From NCBI GenBank assembly GCA_045837725.1, contig JBEWZL010000076.1, forward strand, positions 1 to 64,000: a stretch of 64,000 nucleotides of DNA, read 5' to 3'. This document shows positions 1-62,885 of the stretch, piece after piece. The number at the start of each line of letters is the position of its first letter. Position 1 is the stretch's first letter. The notes below the pieces were generated by a model. It was not told the origin of the DNA and did not search any database. It saw only the letters and a list, made by a program, of their open reading frames with translations. The position numbers and the translations under genes were made by a program. Source of the stretch: Vermamoeba vermiformis. Taxonomy: Eukaryota.

Positions 1-9
1 TTGCGTTGT

Positions 10-2300
10 ACTTACCTTTTGCGATAGACGAATTATATTAACTCCAGACGGATCGAGTCTCAATCCGCGCCTATTCGTGCAATCAGCTCCGTGAGCAAAT
101 CTGAGTTATAGAATTGTTAATAATTCATATATATAACGCGTTATACTTACCTTTGGAGCACTCGATGCGCTTCATTAAAAGTTGAATCGCTGCTGGATCG
201 CGGATTCGTAGCCCTCAAAGGTTTCTTCAAGGGTCAATTAGACCGTATCTGTAATTATAACGCGTTAGTAATACTGTATTAATATCGATCTATAGTATTG
301 ATATGGCGAACTTACCCTTCTATATAAATTTTTTATCGCATGAAGATCGCGATCTAGATCCGTTCTGGGTTTTTCTTAAGACTTAAATAATCAATATTAA
401 AACATCACATATTTATTGAATAACTATAGAAAAGCACTTACATGTCAAGAGAACTTGTCCTGTCACGGATCGAGTGTTCGAATCCACGTATCCGGTCTGC
501 GTCCGCTCCTTTTGAGTAATAACCTGTAAATTTATGATTACTAAAATATATTAACGATAAAATAACCAGTTATTTAACTTTGGTTCAAGCGCTGTGTTGC
601 AACGACGCTGAATATCGTTGGGCGCGTGTATAATATACACAGTGAACTAAATACTATTAATAATTCGACCCTTGTGGTCGATCTGATGCGAATCTAAGTT
701 CGCATCACTTCAAATCAAAATAACTCGCGCTGAACGCCGTTGTGGCCGTGGCGCGTAACTATAGCTGTTAATAAGCGATGAACAATAAATATAACGACCC
801 TTGTGGTCGATCTGTCAAAGTTTTTACTAAAAATAACGGCTCCAGATCTTTGTGATTCCCACCCGTAATTAAATTAATTAGCATTTATTATTATGTACAC
901 AATTTTATCTTTTCGCTCGTGGATGCGTTCTAAATGCAATAACAGTCAGATCTGCAACTTGTCCACTAAGTCGGTCTCGTGCTATCAAACTATAATAAAA
1001 AAGATATCAATATTATATATGATAGAGTTGTACGCTTTGAACTTACTTTCGGCGCAATTGATGCGCAGCGTTAGCAGATCGAGTGCCACGAGCGAGCCGA
1101 TCTCATCCTTTTAAATCCTAAATAAGAATAATTATTAATATTGGCGTTTATTTTAAATTTTTAAGCATTGTACTTACTTTCGACACAATCGATGCGTCAC
1201 TGAAGTTTCTGAGAGATCGGGATGTCGCGACCTGATCTCTGGCCCCCGCTCTGTGTAATCTCTTTGATGTAAAATTAGTATAAATAAGTTAATATATAAA
1301 CATATAAGAGATATCACTTACCTTTAAGGCAATCGATGCCCTACATTGATATTTTAGCGGATCGAGACGCGTTGGATCCCGATCTCGTAAATGTTCAACA
1401 GAAGTCTCCTTCGCCATTTCTATGGAGATAATGCGTTAGTGATGGATGGTCTCTATATGTATATGTACTTACCGGTGCATCACAAGCAATGTAATGGATC
1501 TAATAACATTCGAGAGGATCGCGTTCGAGATCCGTCCCGTGTAACTTTTAACGCCTAAATAAATAGCTTTAGAATATTAAATAGCAATAATATAATAAAT
1601 TTAAACTACTTACGCTTGAAGAATTAGCGGGGACTGAGCGATCGACTTCGCGAACGATCCGCACATCACGTCTGCGCAGACGACACTGAAATAACCTATA
1701 AACTAACGATTATTATATTGTATTGATAATATGATAAGCAATGATTTAAACTTTGCACGAGCACGAAGCTCGATCTAATTTGAAAAAATTTAACTTGATT
1801 TTTAAATGATTAATCGACGCATTGGAATGATTATTTTATCACTATTGAATATATTTAAATACTTACTGAATTATTTCGAGGCTCTGGGCGGATTCAATCT
1901 CGCCATCAAGGTACCGACCCCATCGGCGAGCAATAGTCATCGTTCCTGCACCGGGGCACGAACGAAAGGCACCAGTGTATAATAAAACGACATTGGTGGT
2001 CAGGATCTCGCGCATCGAAAGTAACTGGAACTTTCGATCGCGTTAAAAATTTGTGATCTCTATCTAAATTAAAAATTACGCGTTAGCATATTATATGTAG
2101 TATATTTTTATCGATATTCATTAAAAATCCGGATAAAATCCGAGCACTTGGCTCGATCCGGATCAGTAGAAAATTTAAAAATTGATTTTACGACAAAATA
2201 ATATTGTCCATGGTGGAAGTATATATATAAAAATCTTACCTTGAATTATCTCGGTCTCTGCACCGAGATTCGCACAAGTCTTGATCTCGCGCATTGTCTC
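10..2300 (-). ncRNA. Putative multi-exon non-coding transcript built of repeated ~70-100-nt hairpin exons (continues off the left edge; may begin as far right as ~4100)
   Basis: Minus-strand GTAAG(T) donors at + positions 15, 150, 315, 441, 1046, 1177, 1321, 1472, 1613, 1866 and 2239. Most pair with branch-like TAAC/TAAT plus YAG acceptors, e.g. intron 150->101 GTAAGT...TATTAAC...TCAG and intron 315->249. Exons share GATC...GATC stems and (+)CAATCGATGC-like motifs. The exon joins I tested hit stops. Confidence 0.55.
601..815. repeat. Bipartite hairpin repeat block 1 (ACGACGCTG or ACTCGCGCTGAAC hairpin + A-rich spacer + CGACC-CTTGT-GGTCG-ATCTG), 2 units
   Basis: CGACCCTTGTGGTCGATCTG at ~666 and ~795; perfect hairpin TGATGCGAA-TCTAAG-TTCGCATCA at 684-707. 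Confidence 0.9.
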
Positions 2301-2307
2301 GCGCTGT

Positions 2308-2690
2308 AACGACGCTGATTGTCGTTTGGTGCGTGTGCACTAACAATAAATTAACAATCTAAGTAACCAGATCGACCCTTGTGGCCGATCTGTTGCGAAT
2401 CTTGGATTGATACTGTCAATCCTCGAAATAACTCGCGCTGAACGGCCGTCGTGGCCGTGGCGCGCAACTATATGCTGTTAATAAGCGATGAACAATAAAT
2501 ATAACGACCTTTGTGGTCGTTCTGTTGAATTACTGATGCGAAATAGCCCGTGCGCCATTTTCGCATCAGCTCCGAACCTCGAAAGAACTCGCGCTGAACG
2601 GCTCTGATGCCGTGGCGCGTTACTGTCATCTGTAAATGTGCAATATAATACTAAATATTAAATAAACCGACCCTTGTGGTCGATCTGTAT
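2308..2690. repeat. Bipartite hairpin repeat block 2, 3 units
   Basis: CGACC(C/T)TTGTGG(T/C)CG at ~2373, ~2505 and ~2668; ACTCGCGCTGAACGG...GTGGCGCG at ~2431 and ~2587. Confidence 0.9.
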
Positions 2691-2759
2691 CAGTTGTTAA
2701 AAATAAAGTCCAAAAACTGATGCGTGCGATTTTGACTTTCCCTAAATAAGACATTTTAC

Positions 2760-3734
2760 GCTAAAACTCCAGCGGAGCCTAAATTTTGGCCAATATAGCT
2801 CAAATCCATCATAATATGTACAATATAATTTATAATACACCATAATATCATAACAATAAGATATTAGTGGTATTTTATGAGGTGTTGATCTGCAGCAGTA
2901 GATCTGGTTTTATTATTACATTACAAGGGTTTACTATGAAGTCACCATCACGGTGAACACTTTCTCCATCACGGAGATCATACTGCCATCGCGGCAGGAT
3001 AACACCATCACAGTGTAGTCAAAGCCATCACGGCTGTAGGTGCACCGGGTGGTGGTGTCTTTTGCCATCACAGCAATGTTATCACCATCACGGTGAGGTT
3101 GTGGCCATCACGGCAATATATATGTTGAATGAGTTTGATGCCATCACGGCAAGTTAATCGCCATCACAACGAAGTTAACGCCATCACGGCAAATTGATCA
3201 GATATAGATCCGCTGCTATCATCAAAATAATGATTCTACAAGTTTTGTAATAACCTAATATCACTGTGTGCACGTGCTTACATCATCATCAATCGCTGAA
3301 ATTTCGGCAGACACGGATCGTGCACGATCTATTTGAAATAATTATTTTCACTTCTAAATATATTAATTTCAAGTAAATATATCATATATATATTTATATT
3401 AAATTATTTAATGTTTCAGGCGATTTTTCAAACAAGTCTAAGTCAAATCTAAATCCAGCCAAATATTCAGCTTTGTTATATTACCGAATTTACCTCTCTA
3501 ATTACTTGTACTAATATATATGTATATAAATCGATGTTTTTGCTGGGCTGATGATGATACTATGGTGTTCTTGTGCAGATCTTGTGCAATCTGACAGATT
3601 CGCCAAAAACATATCTTCTAGTCGCCGGAAAGTTGTATAAACAGTACCATATTATGGTACTATACTCTAATATAATATATACTACTATAATTCTATATTA
3701 TTGTGCCTAAAGTAGGCTCCGCTGGAGTTTTAGC
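2760..3734. mobile_element. 975-bp segment bounded by perfect 22-bp inverted repeats (MITE-like or long-range stem)
   Basis: GCTAAAACTCCAGCGGAGCCTA at 2760-2781 is the exact reverse complement of TAGGCTCCGCTGGAGTTTTAGC at 3713-3734. No ORF inside and no clear target-site duplication. Confidence 0.5.
2942..3190. repeat. Array of 11 short stem-loops with conserved ATCAC (minus strand GTGAT) pentaloop, ~20-bp period
   Basis: tcacc-ATCAC-ggtga, tctcc-ATCAC-ggaga, ctgcc-ATCGC-ggcag, acacc-ATCAC-agtgt, agcc-ATCAC-ggct, ttgcc-ATCAC-agcaa, tcacc-ATCAC-ggtga, gcc-ATCAC-ggc, tgcc-ATCAC-ggca, cgcc-ATCAC-aacg, gcc-ATCAC-ggc. Confidence 0.92.
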
Positions 3735-3747
3735 ATAATTGATCTTA

Positions 3748-4010
3748 AATAACTCGCGCTGAAACGACGTTGGCGTCGTGGCACGTCACTAACAGGTGCT
3801 AATAATCAATACTGAAGAATAATTCGACCCTTGTGGTCGATCTGATGGCTTACTGAATCTGTATACGAAATAACCCGGCCATTTTTGCATCAGCTCAGAG
3901 CTGAAATAACTCGCGCTGAAACGGCTGTGATGCCGCCGCGTGTTTCTGTCAGCGTAAATGAGCAATACAGTACCAAAAAAATAAATAAACCGACTTGCGG
4001 TCGATCTGTT
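3748..4010. repeat. Bipartite hairpin repeat block 3, 2 units
   Basis: AATAACTCGCGCTGAAACG at ~3748 and ~3905; CGACCCTTGTGGTCGATCTG at ~3825; variant CGACTTGCGGTCGATCTG at ~3991. Confidence 0.9.
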
Positions 4011-4299
4011 TATTTGAAATCGATAACCCTTGCTTGCTGCTGTCAGCCAAACTAATAAATAATTGAGTTGTTATGCAATAAACAAATAAAGAGCATTAAC
4101 ATTATAAATAATTGACGGTTGTGCTCGATCTGTCCGCGAGAGAAAACTACAAGTAACGGTCACTGCCTGATTTGGTAAAATCGACATTCGTCGACCGCAC
4201 GTGAGCATCGACACTCGTCGACTGGTACACGTGTCTGCCAAAAATTGCCGTTCTGTGTTGGGAAATAACCTGGCACAGCCACAGAAAAAGTGCGTGCAC

Positions 4300-6220
4300 G
4301 CACAAAACTCACAAACACAACACCGTAACAATACAACCACAACCACGAGCTGGCCAGTAAGAATAATTTGCTAGTTTATTTATTGCTGGCTTCGTCACGA
4401 CGTGCTTGGTATTGCGCGACCCTGCACTAGTGCTACTAATTATGCTCTGCCCTGCAAGTGCAATAATCATTCGTGGTAAGTAGGCTTGATAGTATTTAAT
4501 TTATAAAATAGATTATTTTACAGTTATCTATTTATTAATTTTCTTTTCAGGTAAAGCCGATCAACAACGCACCTGTTGTTTTACGCGAAGAAATTGCCAC
4601 CTTCGCTGAGAATGTTACTGGTAAAATCTAGAATGTAAGTAATGGGCTGTTTATCAACCTGCATTTTTAATTACATTAAAACTAATTTCAATCTCAGATA
4701 CGGCAGATTTTGACGAGACAACGGGTCTGTCTCCTGGCATCGGATTGCTGCGTCTTTGAGCAGTACAGAAGTAATGGGGGATGCGAACACCGGTAAAATA
4801 AGTGGTAAGTGATATTTAATACTAGTTTATTTTTAAAAATCAAATGCGCGGCATCTCACCTTTTTTGTTCTCGCAGCTCTCCTGGCTCGAACGCGTGTGC
4901 ACTATTTTTCAACAACGTTTCACAGCAAAGGCAGCCTTGCCAATGTTTGAGTAAGTACTCTCTGAATTTAAATCGAGTTAACTAATCCGATCTTCAGTTC
5001 TTCCAACAGCTGCGTGGCACACCGTCCAGTTATTGGACGGTCCCTTCAGTGCATGGCTCGCACGGTCCAAGCCTTGCTTGGCTCAAACCGTCCAAATTCT
5101 GGACGCTTTTTTTAGCGTGGCTCGCACCGTTCCCTCTGCTCTCAGTGTGCCACCGTCCAGTTATTGGACGGTGCCCTCCGCGCCGTGCCTCAGCTCGACA
5201 CCGTCCGGTTATTGGACAGTGCCCTCTGCGCCGTGCCTCAGCTCGACACCGTCCTGTTATTGGACGGTCCCAGTGCATGGCTTAAACCGTCCAAGACTTG
5301 GACGCTTTATCGGACGATCCCTTCAGTGCGTGGCTCGCACCGTCCAAATTCTGGACGCTTTCTCAGCGTGGCTCGCACTGTCCCCTCTGCCCTCAGTGTG
5401 CCACCGTCCAGTTGTTGGACGGTTCCCTCTGAACCATGCCTTAGCTCGACACCGTCCAGTTATTGGACGGTCCCCTCTGTGCCGCACTCTCACGTGACTC
5501 CGTCCAGTTATTGGACGGTCCCTTCAGTGCATGGCTCGCACGGTCCAAGTCTTGCTTGGCTCAAACCGTCCAAAGTCTGGATGCTTTTTTTAGCGTGGCT
5601 CGCATGCCTCACTGCCACCGTCCAGTTATTGGACGGTTCCCTCTGCAGCTGCCTTTTGTGTGACATTCCCTCCGTGCTGTCCCTTCAGCGTGCCACCGTC
5701 CAGTTATTGGACGGTTCCCTCGGTGCGTGGCTCAAACCGTCCAAATCTTGGACGCTTTTTCAGCAAATGGCTGACCGTCCAAGTCTTGGACGCTTCATTG
5801 GTGCGTTGTTGACACCGACCAGTTATTGGACGCTTAATTGGACAATCTCTTCAGTGCGTGGCTCGCACCATCCAGTTATTGGACGGCCACTTCAGTGCAT
5901 GGCTTGCACCATCCAGTTATTGGACGGTTCCCTCTGTGGCTGCCTTCTGTGTGACATCCCCTCCGTGCCGTCCCTTCAGCGTGCCACCATCCAGTTATTG
6001 GACGGTTCCCTCGGTGCTGTGCCTCAGCTCAGTGTGGCTCACACCGTCCAGAACCTGGACGCTTGGCTGGTGCTGCATGGCTTGGTGAGTAGATTGCACC
6101 ATCCAAGACTTGGATGCTTTGTTGGTGGCTTGCACTGTCCAGGACCTGTGCACCTTCTTGGCTGGAGCTCACACTTTGTATGCCAAGGTCCTGGACAGTC
6201 AATTGTAAAATAAAGTTTAG
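4300..6220 (+). ncRNA. Putative spliced, polyadenylated non-coding transcript whose last exon is the palindrome array
   Basis: Canonical introns 4476-4550, 4635-4697, 4805-4876 and 4951-4997 (GTAAGT...branch-like site...CAG), possibly also 4357-4458. AATAAA at 6209-6214 directly after the array. The spliced frames I tested contain stops. Confidence 0.5.
5021..6200. repeat. Array of ~23 palindromic units (ACCGTCCA-GTTAT-TGGACGGT and CCGTCCAA-N4-TGGACGC) with repetitive spacers
   Basis: About 13 GTTAT-loop copies (5021, ~5152, ~5200, ~5247, ~5403, ~5451, ~5500, ~5617, ~5695, ~5814, ~5867, ~5908, ~5985) interleaved with about 10 AA(ATT/GAC/GTC/ATC)-type copies. Confidence 0.95.
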
Positions 6221-6253
6221 TTTTTACAAACAGCTCCTTTATTGGGTTTGCAA

Positions 6254-6438
6254 GGGGGTGTACAGCATGCTGTACAGGGGTGCGATGGGTGTACAGCATG
6301 CCGTACGGGGGTGCGAGGGGGCGTACAGCGTGCCGTACGGGGGTGCGAAGGGGTGTTCAGCGTGCCGTACAGGGGCATCAAGGGGTGTACAGCATGCTGT
6401 ACGGGGGTGCGAGTGGGTGTACAGTGTGCTGTACGGGG
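6254..6438. repeat. G-rich ~31-bp tandem repeat x6 containing palindrome GTACAGCATGCTGTAC
   Basis: Unit GGGGTGTACAGCATGCTGTAC(A/G)GGGGTGCGA; runs of G3-G5 give G-quadruplex potential. Confidence 0.95.
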
Positions 6439-6584
6439 AAAAAATCCTAGCCCCAGCCCCAAATCCTATAAAATATGACATTAAAAAAACAGCTATAGAA
6501 ACTTTGTAGCTACTTTTTACAATATTTTATTTTTAACCCTCTCACCCCCAAACCCTAAAGCTATATTAATCATCGCATTCAATC

Positions 6585-7500
6585 TGATTCTCATCATGGA
6601 CACGACACCAACATTTACGCGTGCAAAAAGATCATGCATTTGAAGCTGATTCTCATTTAAACCATGACGCCAAGATTAGCACGTGCAACTGGAAGCATAA
6701 AGAATGCAGTTGTAGCTCTTCTCTCTATAACAACGACGCCAATTCAACGCGCGTGCAATTAGAACGCACTTTTGATATCAATTACACTATACCCACGACG
6801 CTTGTTTTAAGCACGCGCACTGAGGATGAAACATGCTCAATCATTATGTTTCAGTGTATTTAAAGCACCCGTGTACCAATGAACAGGCATTGATTACCTC
6901 AACACTCTATTTCATTATAAGCACGACGCTAGCATTAATACACACGTAAATCATACATTTCTATTATAACCACGACGCTAACATTTAGCGTACACGTGAA
7001 ACAGGGATACTCATCATGTTTCAACAGATTTAAAGCATTCGTGTACCATTGAACTGACACTGACACCATCAACTCTGATTCTCATTATTACCACGACGCC
7101 CATGTTTACGCGCGCGAATAACACTTGATTCTCTTATTAACCACGACGCTCGCTTTCGATAAGCGTCCGTGAAGCAGACATTATGCTTCTATTCATTTAA
7201 AGCACGCGTTACCAGTGAACTTGCATTGATATCTCAACAATGAAATCTCATCTTTGATTCTCATTATAACCATGACGCTCACATAGAGCGTACGCGTAGA
7301 AACAGGACATTCTTCATGTTTCGACGTGTTTAAAGCACATGTGCGAGTAACTAGCATGGATTACGATACCAATGATGAAGCAGGACACCCTTCATGCTTC
7401 TATTCAATTAAAGGATCCATGTACCAGTTAACCATCATTGATTCCATCTTCAAAATGAAATTTCATTTTCATTTCTCCTCTTTTCTTCTTTCATTCTATT
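6585..7500. repeat. Degenerate repeat family (TTCTCATTATAACCACGACGCT...ACGCGTG) with a higher-order unit (CATGTTTCA...TTTAAAGCA...GTACCA)
   Basis: ACGACGC/ATGACGC-like core at ~6601, 6663, 6732, 6794, 6922, 6971, 7092, 7142 and 7271, mostly after TATAAC-like sequence; TTTAAAGCA at ~6859, 7029, 7196 and 7329. Confidence 0.8.
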
Positions 7501-7504
7501 ATGC

Positions 7505-7735
7505 AACGACGCTGATTGTCGCAGGGCGCGTGTTTACTATCAATAATAACAATAACAATAATAATAACTCGACCCTTGTGGTCGATCTGATGCAAATCTA
7601 AGTTCACATCTAATTTTCAATTCCACAGCCAAAATAGCTCGTGCTGAACATCTTCTGTTGCGTGACGAGTTACTTGCATATTGTAACTAGAATAAATAAA
7701 TAAGAAAAAATAATTCCTCACTTTGTGGTTGAGTT
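7505..7735. repeat. Bipartite hairpin repeat block 4, 2 units (second degenerate)
   Basis: AACGACGCTGATTGTCG at 7505; CGACCCTTGTGGTCGATCTGATGCAAATCTAAGTTCACATC at 7570, nearly identical to 666-706; CTCACTTTGTGGTTGAG at ~7717. Confidence 0.85.
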
Positions 7736-8300
7736 TATTACATCATTTCTTTGCAAAAACAGATTTACTCCGATCTCCGCGAGAGACCGTTCGTTCTGTT
7801 TGATAAACCCTGTGCACGAGTGTTAACTGTCAAAATTAATTACACCACAAGGCGACTCGTGGTCAAAATCCCGCAAATCAACAGCAAAAAAAAGGTTATT
7901 CGTTAATGTCCTGCGGTGACTTTCAAAAATTTCAAATCAGATTTGGGCGGGAGGGTAAATTATCAGCAACGCGAGCAGCTACAGCAATGCCGTCTCGTGC
8001 GCTGCGACTAACATAATTACAGAGAAATTGTGGTAGCTACCTTTGCGCAAGATAAACGATTTAATTTTGATTTGGATCAGCTGAAGTAAAATAATTGGTG
8101 ACCATTGCCAGTGCAAACACGAGCACTGTTACATATGAAACTGTCTTTCGTGCTTGTTTGGTGCGTTTTGATGACAAAAATAACGCATGATTGTAACTAC
8201 GAGTCTCGCTCGTGTCGTCACTAGTTACGAGTTATGGCTCCAATAGATCACGCCTGCCCACTAAATTGTAAGTTATTTTGATTGTTTTTTGTTGTAAGTT

Positions 8301-8770
8301 CATGACCAGTGCGGTCACGAAGTTTTTCAAGTTTGAATTTTTTTACATCGTCTCCCTGTGGAGACGACCTCAAGGGACTTTAATTTTTCTTAGTTCGTGA
8401 CCAGTGCGGTCACGAAGTGGGACTTAGTTTTTTTGTTACATCGGCCTTGCAGGACTTTAATTTTTTTTAACATCGTCTCCCTGTGGAGACGACCTCTGTA
8501 GGACTTAGTTTTTTTAGACATCGTCTCCTCGTGGAGACGACCTCTATCGGACTTAGTTTTTTCAGACATCATCTCCCCGTGGAGACGACCTCCAATGACG
8601 TGACATCAATTTTCTTAGCTCGTGACCACTGTGGTCACGAAGTTTTAAACTTTGGTTTTTTTACATCGTCTCCCTGTGGAGACAACCTTGAAAGACTTAA
8701 ATTTACATCATTTCCTGCTAGAGACAACTGTAAAGGACTTTAATTTCAGTTGTGACCATTGTGGTCATAG
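8301..8770. repeat. Mixed hairpin array: CGTCTCC-CTGT-GGAGACG (x5) and GTGACC-A(G/C/T)TG(C/T)-GGTCAC (x4) separated by T-tracts
   Basis: CGTCTCC-type at 8349, 8474, 8522, ~8570 and 8667; GTGACC-type at ~8302, 8397, 8622 and 8752. Confidence 0.9.
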
Positions 8771-8894
8771 TTTTGCCCTTACCAGTACAGTTGTTGTTTT
8801 ATTCTAACTTGTTATATTGTAAAATGAATAAACTCTTTCAACATTTAATCTCTCTGGTGTGTAATTACTCTTGTCAGCCCTCAACTCTAATTAA

Positions 8895-9185
8895 CTCTTG
8901 GCGACTCTAGTTAGTGCTCGGCTAGTCTTGTTAGTGCTCGGTGACTCTCATTAGTGCTTGGCGACTCTCGCTAGTGCTCGGCAACTCTCGTTAGCGCTCG
9001 GCGACTCCCATTAGCGCTTGGCGACTCCCATTAGTGTGCAGCGACTCTCGTTAGCACTTGGTGACTTGTTAGCGCTCAGCAACTCTCGCTACTCAGCGAC
9101 TCCTGTTAGCTCGCGGTGACTCTCGTTAGCACTCGGCGACTCTCGTTAGTGCTCAGCAACTCTCGTTAGCACTCTACAACTCTTG
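8895..9185. repeat. 20-bp tandem minisatellite, consensus GGCGACTCTCGTTAG(C/T)GCTC, ~14 copies
   Basis: Directly visible 20-nt periodicity. Confidence 0.95.
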
Positions 9186-10033
9186 CTCACACTTGTGCAA
9201 TTGCTCAATGTTGAACTCTTGGTTGAAAAACTGCCAGAAAAGTTGACTTTACGAAACTTTTTGGATAATTTTTAGGGCTAGCCCTGTTTGGCCAAGCCCT
9301 GTAGTATATATGAATATATTAAACCAAATCTTTTGTCAGGATTAGAAATCCTCCCAAAAAATCTCAAGGGAGGATTTTACTGGTAGGCATTTTTCTCAGT
9401 TCAGTAGTATCAAGTATTAAAATTATTTATATACTAATGACCAGCAATGTTTATTCTATAATATCAATAGTTTTGACACTAATTGGCAAGTGTTTTAATT
9501 TTTATCCAACTGCCAAATATGGCAATGCAGGATCAAAGAATAAAAACCTTTAAAGTTAGGAATTCTTTAATTTATTGTATTCTGTTGAGAGTAGGCCTCA
9601 CTACCATTTGTATCATATTGTTATTCATTTCCTGAGATCCTAAACACAAAAATTTTCACCTTATTTAGTTACCTATGCATCAGATATCTATAAACAGACT
9701 GCTTTATGCATTGGCAATGTGATTGATTATTGGCTTTTGTTGGAGTACATTCTTAGAACTTTCTCATCCCAAATCTGCACCCAAACCTCTCAAAAAGTTG
9801 GTAACATATCAATACTTATCCTTTTGCTGAACATTTAGGAGAGTCTTAAACCTTTTTGTACCAAATCCAAAGCCTTAATCACTGGTTAAAACTCTAATGT
9901 ATCAAACAGATAGCTTTCAATGAAAGCAAGGTGATTATTAAACTCTGCTGGAAGTGGAAATCTTGCAGGCCAATGCAACACTGACAGACAACCAATCAAG
10001 GATCTGATGTAACAAGCAAATACAGACTTTTAT

Positions 10034-11928
10034 CTAAACAGTCTCCTCAAGTTTGTTCAAAAGTGGTTGATCACTGCTGTTGTGCTCACTGTCATCTTGA
10101 ACGTGCTGTCTTGCAGTTGGCTCAGGTAATGTTCCTACTGTCACTCGTTGCATGTGTGTTGTGCATGCTACTCTCTGCACGGAACCAACCCTGTCAAAGT
10201 GTCATTAGCTTGTCAATAGGTTATGCAACAAGCTTATTACTTACAATTCAAAGAGTGTATATCCGAACACGAGGGCCATGACCATTATGAGAAACTGTAG
10301 CGTGGTTTCCCTAGGGAGGCTGTCAGTTAGTACGAACAGAAGCTGTTACAAGGGCACATACATTCGGTGAGTGAATCCCAATAACATAACGATGGTGCCA
10401 ATAGCAATTCTTAAGGGTAGTCGAACTTTCGTTGGTATGACAAAATTGTTGTAATTTTGCGACAAGAAGCCCATGAGACCCATGCTGATCATCACCACAC
10501 CCACACCACCGGAAATCATCCACTGCGCAATGTACGGATGTTCATCATGCTTTTCATTGATCGTGTGCTACGCGAAAATTAGTAACTAGAATTACAGCAC
10601 GACAACGATACTTGCCTCAAGGAGCAACAGTCCAGACGACGCAAAACAGATGCCCAACATTAGTGGCAAGTGACAAAACATCCACAAAATGTAGCCGTAG
10701 CGACTCCTGCGGATAGCGTGCAATGCCTTTGGTGCACCTTCGATGTCAAAGTAAGTCCACTTCAATGCGAAGGCGATGAACAACGGGATGAAAGCACCAC
10801 TAAGAGATTGAACTCAGTCAGTCTAACACACTACACAATTGTTATGATACGCACAGATATCCCGAAAGATCGTGATTCTCCGAGGCGGCTAACAGCGCTA
10901 CAACCATCATGCCCAACAGTAACATAATGAACACCCCCACGCGTTCAATGTAGTGTTCGATGTTGAGCGGTGCTGCATATGGCACGTTGACCGAAAGGAA
11001 AATGATCAACTCTTCTGCGATCAGACTGACAGCCCAACACACGTAGCCGTACTCGGGGAATATCAGTGAACAGCACCAAGGCACGATGAGCAGAGTGTTC
11101 AGTAATGCCATGTACTGACCGACAATGTTAACTGGACTGATCTGCTTCATTATTCATACGTACCAAAGCATTTTGCCATCGCTTGCCCTCGCAATAGGCA
11201 GTGTACATATACATTATTATGAGCAACAATTTCGCTGCGAGATACGACAAAGTGAATCCGACAGAAGGTGATTCTTGTGCGTCGTGTAAATTGATTCCCA
11301 TTCCCACCCAAACATTAGAATTAACATTATGCAATAGAGTAAAACCTTCACTTCGTGCTACTTACAACGGCTGTCATTTGTAACAGATAGTAAATTTTGT
11401 GGATCTATTTCGGGAGTTAGAATCGCGACGGTTCTGTGTTGAAACTTACTATATCATCGGTGTCGTATCGAGTGCTGTACATTGTAGTTGCAGCCCAAAC
11501 ACGCCACACAGCGCCGAAAAGTAGAATGAAAATGTGGATGTGGTCCGAATTCTCGCTCAGAAAATGAACTTAGAATGAAAATTAATTCTTTGGACGTAAA
11601 TATGTGATGGCTAATAGCTAAGTTACCTACCCAAATGTTCGATAAGCACAACGTAAATCAGATCGTAAAATAATTCTGTCCAGGATATTTTTCGCGTGTC
11701 TCTTTCTCGTATTAACACCCTCTTGTTAATTTCTGAATCAAATACGAAATATTGCCGCAGTCGAGGAAACTCTAAGCAAAATGAAATTAGTAAAATTAAA
11801 ATCAACTTTTGCCGGCGGTTGAACATCAATTTAATTATATCGGCCATAAAATAATTCATACCGAGGTTATATTAATTTTACTAAATACTTACTAACGAAT
11901 CCATAGAAACATGACCGTGAACTGTCAT
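10034..11928 (-). CDS. Low-temperature-requirement protein A (LtrA)-family membrane protein, multi-exon (5' end approximate)
   Basis: Exon peptides RKISWTELFYDLIYV, HYIERVGVFIMLLLG and WMFCHLPLMLGI match LtrA motifs; multiple TM segments; stop TAG at 10034-10036 after splicing. Confidence 0.75.
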
Positions 11929-16999: not shown

Positions 17000-17511
17000 T
17001 GCTGCTATTCCACAACAATAAGATCACGATCGATGGCCAGTTTGCGTGAGTTGCGTTTGCGTTCGTATACTTTAATTACAGTGACTGTTGTTTTGTATTA
17101 TACCAAGGACCTTCGTGTTTTTAACAGTGAAAACAAAAAATATCGAAAACACGAAAGAGGGACAAATTTCTATCGGTCCGATTTCAGAAACGAAGCGCAA
17201 TACGTTCACAAGTATATATGCAACATAAATATTAACATTTTTGTATTTGTGTATGGTGTCGATACGAACGCGAGTAATTGGCAATTTCAAGGAAGACTCA
17301 GCTGGATTTCACGCGCAGAAAAATGCGGTGCAGAAATTACAATCGCAAAATCCTCTCCGTTCATTTTTATTTCAAAAAAGACAATAATTTGAACTACCAC
17401 GAATCATGATTGAAATGCAATTTAGTTGAAGGTAAAGCTTGGCGAATCTACTTTATTTCGTGCTCAAGTACTCATTAACAATTGTTAATAATACGGATTA
17501 ATTTAGCAACC

Positions 17512-20500
17512 ATGGGCGAATATATAAAAGAAGACGAAGAAAATGATTGGCATCTGCTTGCGCAAGTTGGCGGATGGTATTGGATGGTGTCAGAAAATAT
17601 TTTCAGATGCACGGAACAAGCTGGAAGAATATATGACTTACAAGCGCCTGATTTGAGCATAACTAAATTCGCTGATTATTGCGTTCCGAAAGACAGAGAA
17701 GTGTTCAGTGAATTTGTTGAGCGGATCATTACCTTCAATGCGCGAGCCGGTCCTCTTAACAAGTCGCAAACCGATGACCACACGTCAATATTTATCAACG
17801 ACGATTCTTCATTCGAGTTTGAATACCGAATTCAATTAGGATCGAAAATAAAATGGATTCATTGCCGAGGAATAATCGAAGTAGTTGACGCCGAAACGAA
17901 GAGGAAAGCCACTTTAGTATCAAACAATGTCGTAGTCACACGCGTAAAAGCCTCAATTCAAGACATTTCCAAAGTGAAACCAAATCTGGATGAAGAGATC
18001 AAACGCAAAAATGAAGAATTGCGCCAAAGTGAAGAAGATTTTCAAGTGCTGGTTGAAGCCATGCCTCAAATGGTTTGGTCAACGACTGTAGAAGGTCGTG
18101 CCAACTACTTCAATAGCAGATGGCACGAATACTGCGGAACTACTTTTGATCAGACTCGAGGCTTTGGCTGGATCATGTCTATACATCCCGACGACGTAGA
18201 GAGCACGCTAAAAGTTTGGAACTATTCGGTTAAGACAGGTGCGTAGATGTGTTTTTGACCTTTTTTGGGCAATGGCTCACCAAATTGCAAAGCCGAATTT
18301 ACAAGCCAAAATTCAAACTGAAATTAATTGCAATCATCTCGGCGGTTAGATTGATACTAATTTCAAGGAATAAATTTTCTTAATACCCGTTTTCATGTTA
18401 AATCAATAAAAACGTACACGCCTAAAAATTTCGCTTTGTAGGCGAGGTTTTTGACTTCAAACATCGCCTAAGGAGGGCCAAAGACGGCCAGTATCGATGG
18501 CACTTAGTGCGTGGAATACCTGTGCGTGGGCCTGATGGAAATATTAAGAAATGGCTCGGTACGTCAACTGACATCCACGATCAGGTATGGAGCCCTTGAC
18601 TAGCCCCAATAGCTTAGCAAATTAATTAATTTAAATCACAGCACGAAGCGGAGGAAAAGGCCAGAGCCTCCGAGCTGTATCTCAGTGGAATCATTCAGCA
18701 CTTTCCCGTTTTGGTAATCGTTCTGAATCGCAACGGTGTATTCACCCTTGCCGACGGCCATGGCTTATCCGTACTTGGCTATGATTCGTCATCATTCCTT
18801 GGAAAGTCCGCCGTTGAAGTAATGTCTTCTCTCGGCAAGCCAGAATATATTGAGTAAGTGATCTTGTTGCAATCAATGAAAATGAACTAACCTTTTGGTA
18901 GATATTTTGAAAGAGGTCTGCGAGGAGAACAATTATCGGTGGAAATGGAGTTTAACAATCACATCCTCGATTGCCACTTTGCCCCATTCAATTTTGATCA
19001 GTCACCGGACAACTCAGGCCTAGTAATTGTTGGCAAAGATATCACCATTAGAAAAGAGGCAGCAAGATTGGCAATTAGTGAGGCTAGTGCACGCGAAGCC
19101 GCAAGGTTAAAAAGCGAATTTTTAGCAACAATGAGCCACGAGATTCGCACACCTCTAAACGGGATTATCGGTACGTGGAAGTAGCATATATTTGACCCGT
19201 TATTGGGTTTCATGATTCAGTTTCGCATTACGTTAGATTGCCAAACCAAAAATTACCATATAACGACTCAACTAATTCTCCGAACACAGGCATGTCAGAA
19301 TTGCTGTCCGACACTACGCTATCCGACGAACAGCGCCGTTATTTAGATATCATTCAAACGAGCAGCTCCAATCTCTTGATGTTAGTGAACGACATTTTAG
19401 ATCTGTCGAAAATGGATGCTGGAAAAGTCGAGCTGGAGAAGACCGAATTTACGATACGCCAGTTTGTTAACAGACAGCTAGATATATTTTCAATTAGTCT
19501 CAAGAACAAATCGCTCAAGCTCAATATAGAGATTGATGAAAAAATCGACCACACAATTTTCGAAGGTGACGAGGGTCGTATTGGTCAAATATTAGTCAAC
19601 CTCATCTCCAACGCGATCAAATTCACGCCACCAAATGGAGAGATATCGTTGAGCGTTCTGCAAGCTTTCAAAAGACGTTTGCCTGTGTCGAATGAAAGCA
19701 CGCCAGTCTCGTCACCCAAGGCAGGTGTGAAAACTGGAGGCTCTCAAGAAATGGAGTCTTTGTCCGAAGCCTCACGAGATATGACCGGCCCCATGGACGT
19801 CATGTTCGTCGTCACCGATTCAGGCATTGGAATTCCTTTGGAGGCCCAGCGCAAGCTTTTCCAACCGTTCATTCAGGCAAACAACTCAACAAGGCGCAAG
19901 TACGGCGGTACTGGTCTCGGCTTGTCTATTTGCAAGAAATTGGTGAAGCTTATGCGCGGTGAAATTGGCGTGGAGAGTGAAGACAACAAAGGCGCCACAT
20001 TCTGGTTCACTATTCCGCTGCTTCCAATGTCGCCTTGCAACTCGCCCGCTACTGACACGCGAGACCGTTCTTTCAGTGAAAGCAGCGCAAGGGTAAGTGC
20101 ACCACTCTGGTTTTTTTTACTTACTGACTTGCTGTACTTCAGAGCAAACTGACGTCCTCGTCGCATCAACCACTACTCGATTTGTTTGAAATGCGCAAGA
20201 AGTTCATCAAGTCATTCTCGTTCACTCAGAGATCTCTCGTCAATCGCAAAGTTATTTCAAAGCCACGCATCTTAGTCGTTGAAGATCATCCAGTTAATCA
20301 AGCTCTCATGGTAGCGACCCTGCGTAAGCTAGGTTGTGAAGTGGAAGTCGCCAATGATGGACAAGAAGCTGTAGATGCCTGGACTGCAGACGACAGTACG
20401 TTTGATCTGGTATTCATGGACTGCTACATGCCCGGTCTCGACGGTTACACGGCTACAAGAATCATTCGGGAGAAAGAAATTAACAACAACTACGGTCGAA

Positions 20501-20691
20501 CATCATTTTCAAAGCTCACGGGCTCAGGCTGCGACCACATTCCGATCATTGCCGTGACTGCCAATGCTTTGAGCGGAGATCGCGAGAAGTGCTTTGAGGC
20601 AGGCATGAGCGACTACTTGCCCAAGCCTATTACAAAGAACTCCATCATTAGCATCATGAAGAAGTGGCTGCCCAACGCGACTATTGATTAG
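17512..20691 (+). CDS. Hybrid sensor histidine kinase (PAS/PAC - HisKA - HATPase - receiver)
   Basis: [12 protein letters not shown]...IHPDD; H-box [22 protein letters not shown]-box [15 protein letters not shown]1 DSGIG; G2 GGTGLGLSI; receiver VVEDHPVN...FMDCYMP...YLPKP. Confidence 0.96.
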
Positions 20692-59979: not shown

Positions 59980-62885
59980 TTAGTGTTGGGGAGTGGCACC
60001 CATACCAGCACCGCCGAGCAAACCATTGGCAGTGTTGAACAAGTTGATGGGTGAGTTGCCGTCGGTGATCATGTAGCCTTGCAAGCCCAAAGATTGGAGC
60101 ATCTTGACTTGCATTTCAGGGCCGGCACGGGCGATGGCAGAAATGGTGTTCTTGCCAATAGCACCGATCAAAGACTTGAACTTGGCAGACTCGATGGTAG
60201 AGAGATCCTTGGCCTTGGAAATCTCGAGCTCGTTGATGGCCTTTTGGTGTTCAATCTCGGCTTCTTGTTCCTTAGTGCTGATTTCAAGATCGGCTTCGGA
60301 CTTGATCTTGACAGCTTCGGCGTGCAAGCGAGCTTGGAGCACAGCAGCCTCACCTTCAATTTGTTGGGCTTCAGCGCGAGCCTTGGCTTCAGCGGTGGCT
60401 TGACCAGTGGACTCGACGGCAGCTGATTGAGCTTGCAATTGCAAGAGGTCCTTACGGGCCTTTTCGGCTTCAGCCTCGTCAGTGATCTTTTGACGTTCCA
60501 AACGACCACGAGCCTCTTGTTCACGTCGCTCTGCCTCGTGTCTGGCAGCGGCTTCTTGAGACTTGGTGGTAATCTCAATAGCCAATTGGACGGAGATTTG
60601 CAAGGCGTCACGAGTGCGTTGATCGACAGGCTCGACGGATTGAATATCGATGTTGTCGATGACCAAGTTGTTGGCAGGGAAGTGGAAACGGTTCTTGATC
60701 TTTCCGTTATCATCAGTGCCAAAGACGGCAGCGCGGATGATCTTAGCAGAGTTCTTGTGGAAGTTATCGAAGGACTCTTGGGCGACAGCACCTCTGACGC
60801 GAGAGGCGATAGCCTTGCAAGCATCACCAACAAAGTCGGGGACTTGGAACAACTTGACGGCCTCTTCTTGGTCGGTCTTGTTGGGGACTTCGAAGTGCCA
60901 GTTGTAGCTCAACTTGAGGGACAAACGAGCGTGATCGGCAGTTTCGACGATGACGAAGTCAGTCATGAAGTCAGGACCCAATTGGAGAGCAATGGACTTG
61001 ATGACGTGAGGGCGCTTGGGCTTGTCACCAGACAAGGACAAGATGGTGAAGTGCTCATCAGGACCCAACATAACCAATTCGGGACCATAGACAACACGTG
61101 ATTGCTTGAGCTTGTAGTCGTAGATTTGAACGGCGGTGTTGTGAGGTGCACGGAAGCTAACGACGCGAGTCTTATCGCGGCCAGAGGGGCCAGAAGGCTT
61201 GTCACCTTCACGGACACCAGAGGCACCGCGGATGATCAAGTCCTCAACGACAGAGGTGAGTTCCTTCTCCCAAAGTTCTTCTTCGGGCAACAACATGTAG
61301 CTGCGACCAGTAACCATGCGAACACGACCGGTCTTGATGTCTCTGACGTAGATACCTTCGTTTTCGTCGAGAGGGATTGAGCGTCTCTTCTCAACAACCT
61401 CAACTTCAACTGAAGGAACGTAGTCGCAAGGACCGTAGATCATCCAGCGGTCACCAGGCTTTCTAAGAACGGCTTCCTTTTCAGTGAGGTCCTTGAAGGC
61501 TTCACGAGCGCGGAGCAAGAGAGCCTCTTCGGCGTCCAAGACGTGAATGGTTTGAATGCCAGCTTCCAAACGCTCTCCGGGTTGCAAGAAGAAAGAGATG
61601 GGACCCTTTCGCAAAACTCTTTTACCCATTTGAGGCTTGCCGTCTTGGCCAACAGGATCCAAAACAACGCAGTATTGTCTGTTGGTCAAAGTGGTGATAG
61701 TGACTTCTCCGATGAGCTTCTCGTTAACGTCGGGGATGTGTGTTTCAGTGTGAGCCAAAGTAACCAACCATTCCTCTCCGGCCTTGCGGGTAGCACCGAA
61801 GGCATCGACGAAAGTGCGGAGAGCTTGGAGGTGAAGAGCCTTCTTGTCGGTCAAGACGTAAGCAGAGACGGTTTCAACGACTTCTTCTTCGACTTGAGGA
61901 ATGAAGGCACCAGGAGTCTTAACCAAGTATTCATCACCAGCCTTTCTTGTGACTTTAGCGGTGGGATCGGGGAACTCCTTCTTGGCACGAAGTCTGAGAG
62001 CCTGGTTGGGCTTAATGACGATGGCGCGAACGATTTCGACGACTTGGACTTCAACTCTAGGAGTGTAGGTACCTAAATTTAAAAAAAGACTTAGATATTT
62101 TGTGGGATTTGGATTTTCAAACGGTTTCCAAGAAAAGTTGCAGAATTGAATTAAAGCCATAATATGATAAGAAATAATACTTACCAGGTCCTTGGAACAA
62201 CCATTCATCTCCAGCAACTCTATCGACCTTGCCGTCCTTAAAATCTCGGATGGCTCTCAATTTAAGAGCTGTGTTGGGAGCAACAACTTGCAAGGGAGAA
62301 ACTTTGCCAAACAAGGTTTCACCAGGGAAGAGAGGGAAAGGCTCTTGTTCGAAGCGAATTTCCTCATCTCCGTGGCGAATCTTGACTTGGCCAACTGAAT
62401 CTGTAACTTGACGACCATCCTTATCTCTGTTTAATATATTTGAATTAATTAAGCTGTCCAAGAAGATATTTAATTGACGGTGATGGTCTTTGATTAACTT
62501 ATTTCGAGGAAGTTGAATTCAAGAAATTGATTTAAGGTCGTTGGAAAACGCTTATCAAAAGACCAACGCATTGTAGAAATCAGCACGATTTTACTATGAT
62601 AAAATTTACTAAGCGTAAAACGTTACCTGAGCACGGGGTTTTGAATAATGCAGTAGTGTCTGGGAGGGATGATAATCATAGCTTCAGGACCACCAACAAC
62701 CTTCTCGTGATCAGCACGAGTGAACGTGCGAGGACCAACAACGACTCTATTAAAACGAGTTAGCTATTTTCTGTAATTATCAAAATAAAAACCGTATCTA
62801 GTCTTTACCTAGTAACGTTGGAGTTGTTATCTAAAACGTGAATGTAGTGGAAGGGCTTGATTCTAATAACAGAGTCACCGTCCAT
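59980..62885 (-). CDS. MVP: Major vault protein, 4 exons
   Basis: [83 protein letters not shown]. Confidence 0.99.

Follow-up and report, generated by a model that had tools for sequence, protein, structure and literature searches.

Positions 5019–6120 of the first 64,000 nt of Vermamoeba vermiformis contig JBEWZL010000076.1 (assembly GCA_045837725.1, positions 1–64,000 of the forward strand; this whole stretch is referred to below as the window) hold an array of 23 short palindromes, with stems of 6–9 bp and loops of mostly 5 nt, which is probably a non-coding, lineage-restricted palindromic minisatellite that grew by duplication, was kept symmetric at the DNA level and lies within a hairpin-rich repeat block. 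The reality of the array and its highly non-random character are virtually certain. The pattern CGTCCA-N5-TGGACG, allowing at most one mismatch, matches 19 times in the window, always within 5023–6061, against 0.06 matches expected from shuffled sequence and with none of 100 shuffles reaching 19; perfect hairpins with stems of at least 6 bp likewise number 28 in 4998–6215, compared to 1.2 ± 1.1 after shuffling. The total of 23, which agrees with the roughly 23 hairpins counted in a preliminary description of this DNA, adds to the 19 pattern matches a palindrome with two mismatches at 5202, the self-complementary CATCCA..TGGATG at 6100 and the CCAAG..CTTGG palindromes at 5066 and 5544.

Pattern, repeat and inverted-repeat searches, none of which assigns a strand to the array, resolve it into two main palindrome types with higher-order duplications. 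Type A reads ACCGTCCA-GTTAT-TGGACGGT, with a nearly invariant loop, and type B reads AAACCGTCCA-N5-TGGACGCTTT, with almost invariant stems and six different loops among eight copies. The preliminary description had these two types alternating with repetitive spacers; the types stand, but a strict alternation does not, the order being A C B A A A B B A A A C B A A B B A A A A B B, with irregular palindrome-to-palindrome spacings of 23–78 nt. Tandem Repeats Finder reports periods of 48, 41 and 25, the repeat families have 13 copies each, and the units run head to tail and fall within the range of about 10–100 bp usual in minisatellites. Blocks of 108–126 nt recur within the array at high identity (5019–5126 with 5497–5604, 96%; 5605–5726 with 5896–6017, 90%; 5108–5233 with 5359–5484, 87%), indicating growth by tandem and segmental duplication, presumably by unequal or segmental events in which the duplicated units bore two related palindromes. 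The loops AGACT (5288 and 6100) and AGTCT (5776) are mutual reverse complements, that is, a spacer inversion of the kind that template switching between the arms of an inverted repeat is described as yielding (PMC8604942; PMC8794818). Dyad symmetry would thus be maintained most simply by identity among young copies, together with template switching between arms, conversion and spacer inversion. The array is followed, at 6134–6199, by a longer unstranded hairpin with a 14-bp stem (ACTGTCCAGGACCT / ..GGTCCTGGACAGT), identified by inverted-repeat and helix searches.

An open reading frame (ORF) spans most of the array on the plus strand (5116–6210), with 365 codons from stop to stop and a first ATG at codon 156. 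The preliminary description, which gave its length as 349 aa, presumably from another start, judged it probably incidental, and this judgement is borne out. In the spliced model, stops occur in every frame upstream of the array and no start codon is joined to the upstream exons, so that a start followed by a continuous frame is lacking. Type A palindromes begin at all three positions modulo 3, only 7 of the 22 palindrome spacings are divisible by 3, which is the chance share, and within the single ORF the palindrome is read in TVQLLD-like form seven times, in PSSYWT-like form four times and as HPVIGR once. Long open stretches are found in all three plus-strand frames because A makes up only 16% of that strand, and the ORF matches no Pfam family. 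Related predicted proteins do exist, three of them recovered by a word-index search and five in all (P0001–P0005) by HMMER over 1.84 billion representatives, but these are NCBI-sourced predictions of 156–300 aa on contigs of only 878–3588 nt. The array can be aligned with each of the five in all three forward frames, and with three of them in reverse frames as well, while four tails (those of the window, P0001, P0003 and P0004) stop at a common TAA that is reached in different frames owing to indels. Matches in three frames and frame-shifted tails mean that the likeness is between DNA repeats and not between proteins, the frame being kept neither among units nor among copies. The array is therefore non-coding, with certainty or nearly so, and its ORF incidental. 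That it should encode a translated repeat protein built of PSSYWTVPS, TVQLLDG and HRPVIGR repeats, as the 365-codon frame and the ORFs predicted by gene callers on other array copies might suggest, is exceedingly improbable given this reading of one palindrome in three frames, the frame shifts between copies, the missing start and Pfam family, and a base composition that opens every plus-strand frame.

As RNA, the 1218-nt array segment has a minimum free energy of -493 kcal/mol, against -412 ± 11 for 30 shuffles (z = -7.5), and its minus strand one of -512 kcal/mol. This stability comes from many short helices. The longest uninterrupted helix anywhere in the segment, with G.U pairs allowed, has 17 bp (5288 with 5776), the next longest have 15 and 14 bp, and only five helices reach 12 bp. 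The long inverted repeat with an extended arm of double-stranded RNA (dsRNA) that distinguishes hairpin RNA (hpRNA) loci is thus absent, and the 17-bp limit means that the alternative dsRNA registers proposed in the preliminary description, there seen as a possible Dicer substrate, exist only as duplexes of about 17–22 bp between palindrome copies. It is all but certain that the array is not a long-dsRNA locus. An hpRNA-like source of endogenous small interfering RNAs, in which palindrome copies would pair, Dicer would cut the duplexes and the resulting small RNAs would silence a target, might still be imagined from the resemblance of tandem hairpins in an mRNA-like unit to hp-CG4068 of Drosophila (PMC10317233), and any two type A copies can indeed pair over about 21 nt with a single U.U mismatch. 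With so few helices of 12 bp or more, and with the palindrome occurring nowhere else in the 64-kb window, so that no target is in view, such a locus is highly improbable. Nor do the palindromes carry the marks of selected RNA hairpins, namely compensatory change beyond chance and a wobble bias on the transcribed strand. No covariation was detected across eight stem pairs in 19 distinct units, where a single double change was seen and 201 of 500 shuffles scored as high; non-standard transition-type pairs on the plus strand comprise four A.C cells against two G.U cells, which gives no sign of plus-strand RNA selection in the array. Rfam yields no match at the gathering score in the window and two sub-threshold matches in 1–10 kb, neither in the array, and a tRNA search returned no tRNAs.

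Upstream of the array lie four GTAAGT donors, at 4476, 4635, 4805 and 4951; the YAG acceptors matching them end at 4550, 4697, 4876 and 4997. At the rate of this hexamer in the window, four or more copies of it would fall within 476 nt with a probability of 2.6e-4. The intron-like segments so delimited on the plus strand are 4476–4550 (GTAAGT...TTTTCAG; 75 nt, GC 19%), 4635–4697 (GTAAGT...ACTAAT...CTCAG; 63 nt, GC 29%), 4805–4876 (GTAAGT...CGCAG; 72 nt, GC 32%) and 4951–4997 (GTAAGT...ACTAAT...TTCAG; 47 nt, GC 34%, with an alternative acceptor ending at 5009). Their GC content of 19–34% compares with 42–50% in the pieces between them, which are exon-like segments at 4300–4475 (GC 45%, with a nominal 5' end and no open frame continuing), 4551–4634 (84 nt, GC 42%), 4698–4804 (107 nt, GC 50%) and 4877–4950 (74 nt, GC 49%). 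Where the preliminary description spoke of four or five canonical introns, four can be retained; they are AT-rich and resemble two of the three introns of the major vault protein (MVP) gene of the window, for which a tblastn search with a full-length relative delimits introns of about 59 and 105 nt that are AT-rich and have TAG acceptors, one of them carrying a CTAAC-like branch motif, and a third, longer one of about 170 nt. The fifth candidate, with its GTAAGA donor at 4357, is weak. The exon-like segments are no more structured than shuffles (fold z of -1.0, +0.5 and +1.25 for the second to fourth). Neither are the four introns (z from -1.1 to +0.5), and the idea that they might be mirtrons was dropped.

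The last acceptor precedes the first palindrome (5020/5023) by 22–25 nt, as the preliminary description had it (about 24 nt), and the AATAAA it placed after the last palindrome is found at 6209–6214, inside a composite plus-strand 3'-end signal, TGTAAAATAAA (6204–6214). Similar signals stand behind the stops of genes in the window: TGTAAATAAA behind the P450 gene, TGTAA...AATAAA behind MVP, TGTAAATAAC behind the EI24 gene and AATAAA alone behind the histidine kinase and Q/N-rich genes, several window genes having TGTAA and/or AATAAA within about 170 nt of the stop. The succession of introns, array and 3'-end signal is thus real, and the array looks as if it sits where the last exon (4998–6215, bounded by the acceptor at 4997 and TGTAAAATAAA) of an apparent non-coding RNA polymerase II unit would be, with a possible start region at the 11-nt motif TCCGCGAGAGA (4133–4143, plus strand). 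If transcribed, the product would be a spliced, polyadenylated RNA with about 23 local stem-loops of 6–9 bp; that the array does form the last exon of such a non-coding RNA is a substantial possibility, falling somewhat short of an even one. Transcription is argued here from motifs only, because the RNA-seq data included no control gene: in three same-species runs (X22–X24, about 13 million reads read from each), 3400–9400 drew 0, 2 and 1 reads, all of them partial matches at 6214–6615 from X23 and X24, with none on 4140–6213. The spacer at 6200–6245 carries 3'-end-like signals on both strands, TGTAAAATAAAG on the plus and AATAAAGGAGCTGTTTGTAAAAAC on the minus strand, a pattern that would be expected of convergent transcripts ending at one place.

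A second unit of the same layout adjoins the first. At 7770–8830, TCCGCGAGAGA (7776–7786) is followed by a GTAAGT at 8268, by an array of two palindromes with a 48-nt period, separated by T-rich linkers, and by the end motif ATTGTAAAATGAATAAA at 8816–8832. The only two matches of TCCGCGAGAGA in the window are those at 4133 and 7776, both exact and both on the plus strand, but their significance is modest, since 19 of 100 shuffles give at least two matches when one mismatch is allowed. On the plus strand, TTGTAAAAT is confined to 6203 and 8817, in each case immediately behind a hairpin array. The minus strand of 1–1900 contains ten GTAAGT sites, most of them spaced by 126–151 nt, with two larger intervals (253 and 605 nt). 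Each site heads an AT-rich segment of about 50–70 nt with TAG or CAG at its end; the exon-like parts between these segments measure 71–98 nt, share the end GCATCGATTGC..AAAG, contain GATC-rich palindromes and have stops in all frames. These modules are non-coding and related to each other, and look like a tandemly duplicated exon–intron module of a non-coding transcript running off the start of the window. Homology between them and the plus-strand modules was considered and rejected, only GTAAGT being common to both. The block as a whole hence looks as if it carried several non-coding, multi-exon units, which supports a gene-like reading more than a single locus would.

This block covers the first 9.4 kb of the window, has no recognisable coding sequence and is filled by at least eight hairpin-bearing tandem-repeat families, of which the array is one. 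A census of perfect hairpins (stem of at least 6, loop of 3–7) gives 82 in 1–9400 against 14.1 ± 4.5 in shuffles, 28 against 9.1 ± 3.7 in 1–4990 and 26 against 4.8 ± 2.8 in 6216–9400, compared to 85 against 80.8 ± 11.5 in the remaining 54.6 kb. No similarity was found between 1–10 kb and the other 54 kb of the window, and in an ORF scan of the first 12 kb (59 ORFs of at least 50 aa, array excluded), none of the 40 lying wholly in the first 9.9 kb reaches the Pfam cut-off. One neighbouring family behaves differently from the main array. In the 20-nt array of 11 units at 2940–3195 (core CCATCAC(G/A)G), the outer three stem pairs change on both sides (CACC/GGTG, CTCC/GGAG, TGCC/GGCA and others), with 10 double-sided cells where shuffles give 3.0 ± 1.3, and the covariation score is 0.487, compared with 0.164; none of 500 shuffles is as high in either measure, and slid controls score 0.045–0.131. 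Template switching can give stem covariation without selection, so that this result does not discriminate between DNA and RNA. The same array lies between 49-nt inverted repeats (2747–2795 and 3699–3747, 78% complementary), possibly the termini of an element.

Other copies of the array, or other alleles, are present in the same organism. In a DNA sequencing run (X1), the depth over the upstream exons (4003–5007) is about 280–376, the single-copy level, against 590–1437 over the array and 2003–9047 over 6214–6615. Some contigs cross the array with 729, 329 or 87 nt left out, at depths of 118–197 against about 280 (some 40–70%); one of these joints gives exactly the tail of P0003. Two single-nucleotide polymorphisms stand at about half depth, and alleles and paralogues are not distinguishable among these variants. 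The single-copy depth of 4003–5007 means that the repeated unit does not extend to the upstream exons and that the other copies are without them, and the depth over 6249–6615, at 7- to 32-fold the single-copy value, marks that segment as probably a high-copy genomic repeat. Beyond the organism, a metagenome scan with the type A palindrome returned four loci, each with a single match of 19–25 nt and no flank similarity, as expected by chance; in viral contigs, the palindrome had no match and the CGACC element of the block a single chance 20-mer match. The array is almost certainly lineage-restricted.

Several observations weigh against a minisatellite shaped at the DNA level alone. Without present or past transcription, it is difficult to account for four donors of consensus type and acceptors that suit them, for a consensus 3' signal and for a neighbouring unit with the same layout and two shared motifs. 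The covariation in 2940–3195 indicates that something in the block keeps hairpins as such, which could be RNA selection, and in the main array the type B stems are far better conserved than their loops, which could reflect selection for a hairpin or a dimer binding site and not the youth of the copies. On these grounds, a functional spliced, polyadenylated long non-coding RNA (lncRNA) could be proposed, in which the terminal exon would present about 23 stem-loops to many hairpin-binding proteins, as a scaffold or sponge, and the unit at 7770–8830 would be a paralogue with other hairpins. Its intron-like segments and 3' signal are in place, the two adjacent units share their layout, the upstream 11-mer and the tail ATTGTAAAAT, and the array RNA folds 7.5 standard deviations better than shuffles. 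But the stems of the array itself do not covary, A.C outnumbers G.U on the plus strand, the minus strand folds slightly better than the plus strand, the upstream exons and introns are unstructured, and no relatives beyond a few short contigs emerge from 1.84 billion protein representatives; a functional lncRNA is accordingly regarded as unlikely. The same holds, with little difference, for the wider and also unlikely proposal of a small family of spliced, polyadenylated non-coding RNAs in Vermamoeba whose last exons would be strings of about 10–23 stem-loops. Such a family would comprise at least two units (4133–6215 and 7776–8830), with different hairpins but a shared start motif, layout and 3' motif, and a divergent third on the minus strand of 1–1900; the covarying stems of 2940–3195 would suggest that hairpin formation is selected, and the arrays would offer hairpin-binding proteins multivalent landing pads or give rise to unusual small RNAs.

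Two further alternatives place the array in a DNA context. It could be a region of tandem repeats inside some mobile or dispersed element, similar to a miniature inverted-repeat transposable element, a foldback element or a Helitron, with the intron- and poly(A)-like motifs either fortuitous or relics. Copies sharing the 3' tail, the raised depth over the array and 6214–6615 relative to the unique flanks, and the inverted repeats around the nearby 2940–3195 array are all compatible with such an origin. Around 4998–6440 itself, though, the flanks show no inverted repeats reaching 20 nt, as would be required of terminal inverted repeats, the 40 ORFs of the first 9.9 kb contain no transposase or other Pfam domain, and part of the raised depth stems from reads and contigs that fit several places within the array. 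A mobile element appears, on balance, distinctly unlikely. Alternatively, the 9.4-kb block could be a chromosomal element adopting non-B DNA, comparable to a centromere, an origin or a boundary, with the array as one of its satellite families. The block exceeds shuffles in hairpins 3- to 23-fold across several unrelated repeat families, several of which have periods of about 130–170 nt, and dyad symmetries below 10 bp have been reported for centromeric satellites (PMC5889037). Against this, the block is small and adjoins ordinary genes, and oriented splice-like signals occur on both sides of it, rendering a chromosomal role of this type improbable. The palindromic minisatellite continues to be the preferred explanation.

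Like minisatellites and satellite DNAs, the array consists of head-to-tail units of tens of bases that are non-coding and lineage-specific; it is duplicated at a higher order, its copies or alleles apparently differ in structure, and it shares with centromeric satellites their short dyad symmetries (PMC5889037). Unlike them, it measures only 1.2 kb, has irregular units, is embedded in a mosaic of different hairpin repeats, has splice-like and poly(A)-like signals on its two sides, and is known here from its sequence and not from a chromosomal position. In hp-CG4068, 20 tandem hairpins are described as arising from one mRNA-like transcript, with a copy number that evolves fast (20, 9, 14 and 10 in four Drosophila species; PMC10317233); the likeness is confined to the layout of many tandem hairpins in one mRNA-like unit, putative in this case, since the stems here have 6–9 bp, the best helix between copies has 17 bp and the organism belongs to a different eukaryotic supergroup. 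The M1 and M2 repeats of pithoviruses, giant viruses that infect amoebae, also combine two palindromic non-coding types in mixed (M1-M2)n clusters, thought to have spread by transposition and/or recombination, but they are viral, about 140 nt long, with inverted arms of 47–54 bp and putative TA duplications (PMC10664404), and share no sequence similarity with the array. Template-switch (quasipalindrome) mutagenesis fits the perfect arms, the concerted changes in two arms and the inverted AGACT/AGTCT spacers (PMC8604942; PMC8794818). It is a mechanism and not a family, and leaves tandem amplification and the splice-like context unexplained. For the neighbouring second unit, a further parallel may be drawn. 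The A-repeat of the Xist lncRNA consists of GC-rich short hairpin modules repeated in RNA, and 8340–8750 resembles it in having hairpins split by linkers that would be U-rich, with a 48-nt period; both this segment and the main array are known here from DNA letters, and an RNA or a binding protein would be hypothetical.

Taken as no more than a palindromic minisatellite, the array constitutes an ordinary but neat example of how dyad-symmetric repeats grow. It is then also a warning that palindromic repeats produce long spurious ORFs, which find their way into protein databases, at least five of them here (P0001–P0005). To our knowledge, almost nothing is known of non-coding RNA in amoebae. Should the splice- and poly(A)-like context prove true, amoebal lncRNAs built as strings of short stem-loops would provide a natural counterpart of multivalent hairpin arrays, and the 9.4-kb block, with covariation in one of its arrays, offers a concrete place to ask whether hairpins are maintained by selection or by template switching. 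No description of arrays of this kind in Vermamoeba was found in the literature searched, supplements aside: the accessible text of two genome papers makes no mention of such repeats (PMC7125106, where the string "palindrom" does not occur; PMC11702301), and a search combining Vermamoeba with Dicer and small RNA gave nothing on Vermamoeba among the matches listed.

The remaining families of the block are varied in period and arrangement. A tandem and dispersed element of about 155 nt, in which the hairpin CGACC-CTTGT-GGTCG is followed by ATCTG, recurs at 596–830, 2290–2700, 3735–4140 and 7495–7690; it also includes a second hairpin, GATGCGAA..TTCGCATC, a box, AAATAACTCGCGCTGAAC, and a AATAAATAAA stretch, and is found directly upstream of both array units. 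On the 3' side of the main array, 6249–6438 holds an unstranded 32-nt array of six units around the perfect 16-nt palindrome GTACAGCATGCTGTAC, followed by units of about 130–170 nt at 6576–7342. The 48-nt array of the second unit (8292–8746) combines GTGACC-AGTGC-GGTCAC with CGTCTCC-CTGT-GGAGACG, and directly after the 3' motif of that unit, a 20-nt-period array at 8857–9202 contains about 14 copies of GGCGACTCTCGTTAGTGCTC without clear palindromes.

Beyond the block, the window carries ordinary genes. The first recognisable one, at about 10.6–11.9 kb (10600–11900, minus strand), has several introns and encodes an LtrA-like membrane protein; the gene at 17479–20691 (plus strand) specifies a hybrid histidine kinase with a receiver domain, sterol-methyltransferase-like and EI24-like genes are also present, and MVP, with its three introns, lies at 59983–62885 (minus strand). 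The GC content of the window, about 42%, is close to the 41.7% published for V. vermiformis (PMC7125106). At 97% identity, its MVP matches a 90%-identity cluster with an EukProt V. vermiformis protein among its members, and the two observations point to V. vermiformis or a close relative.

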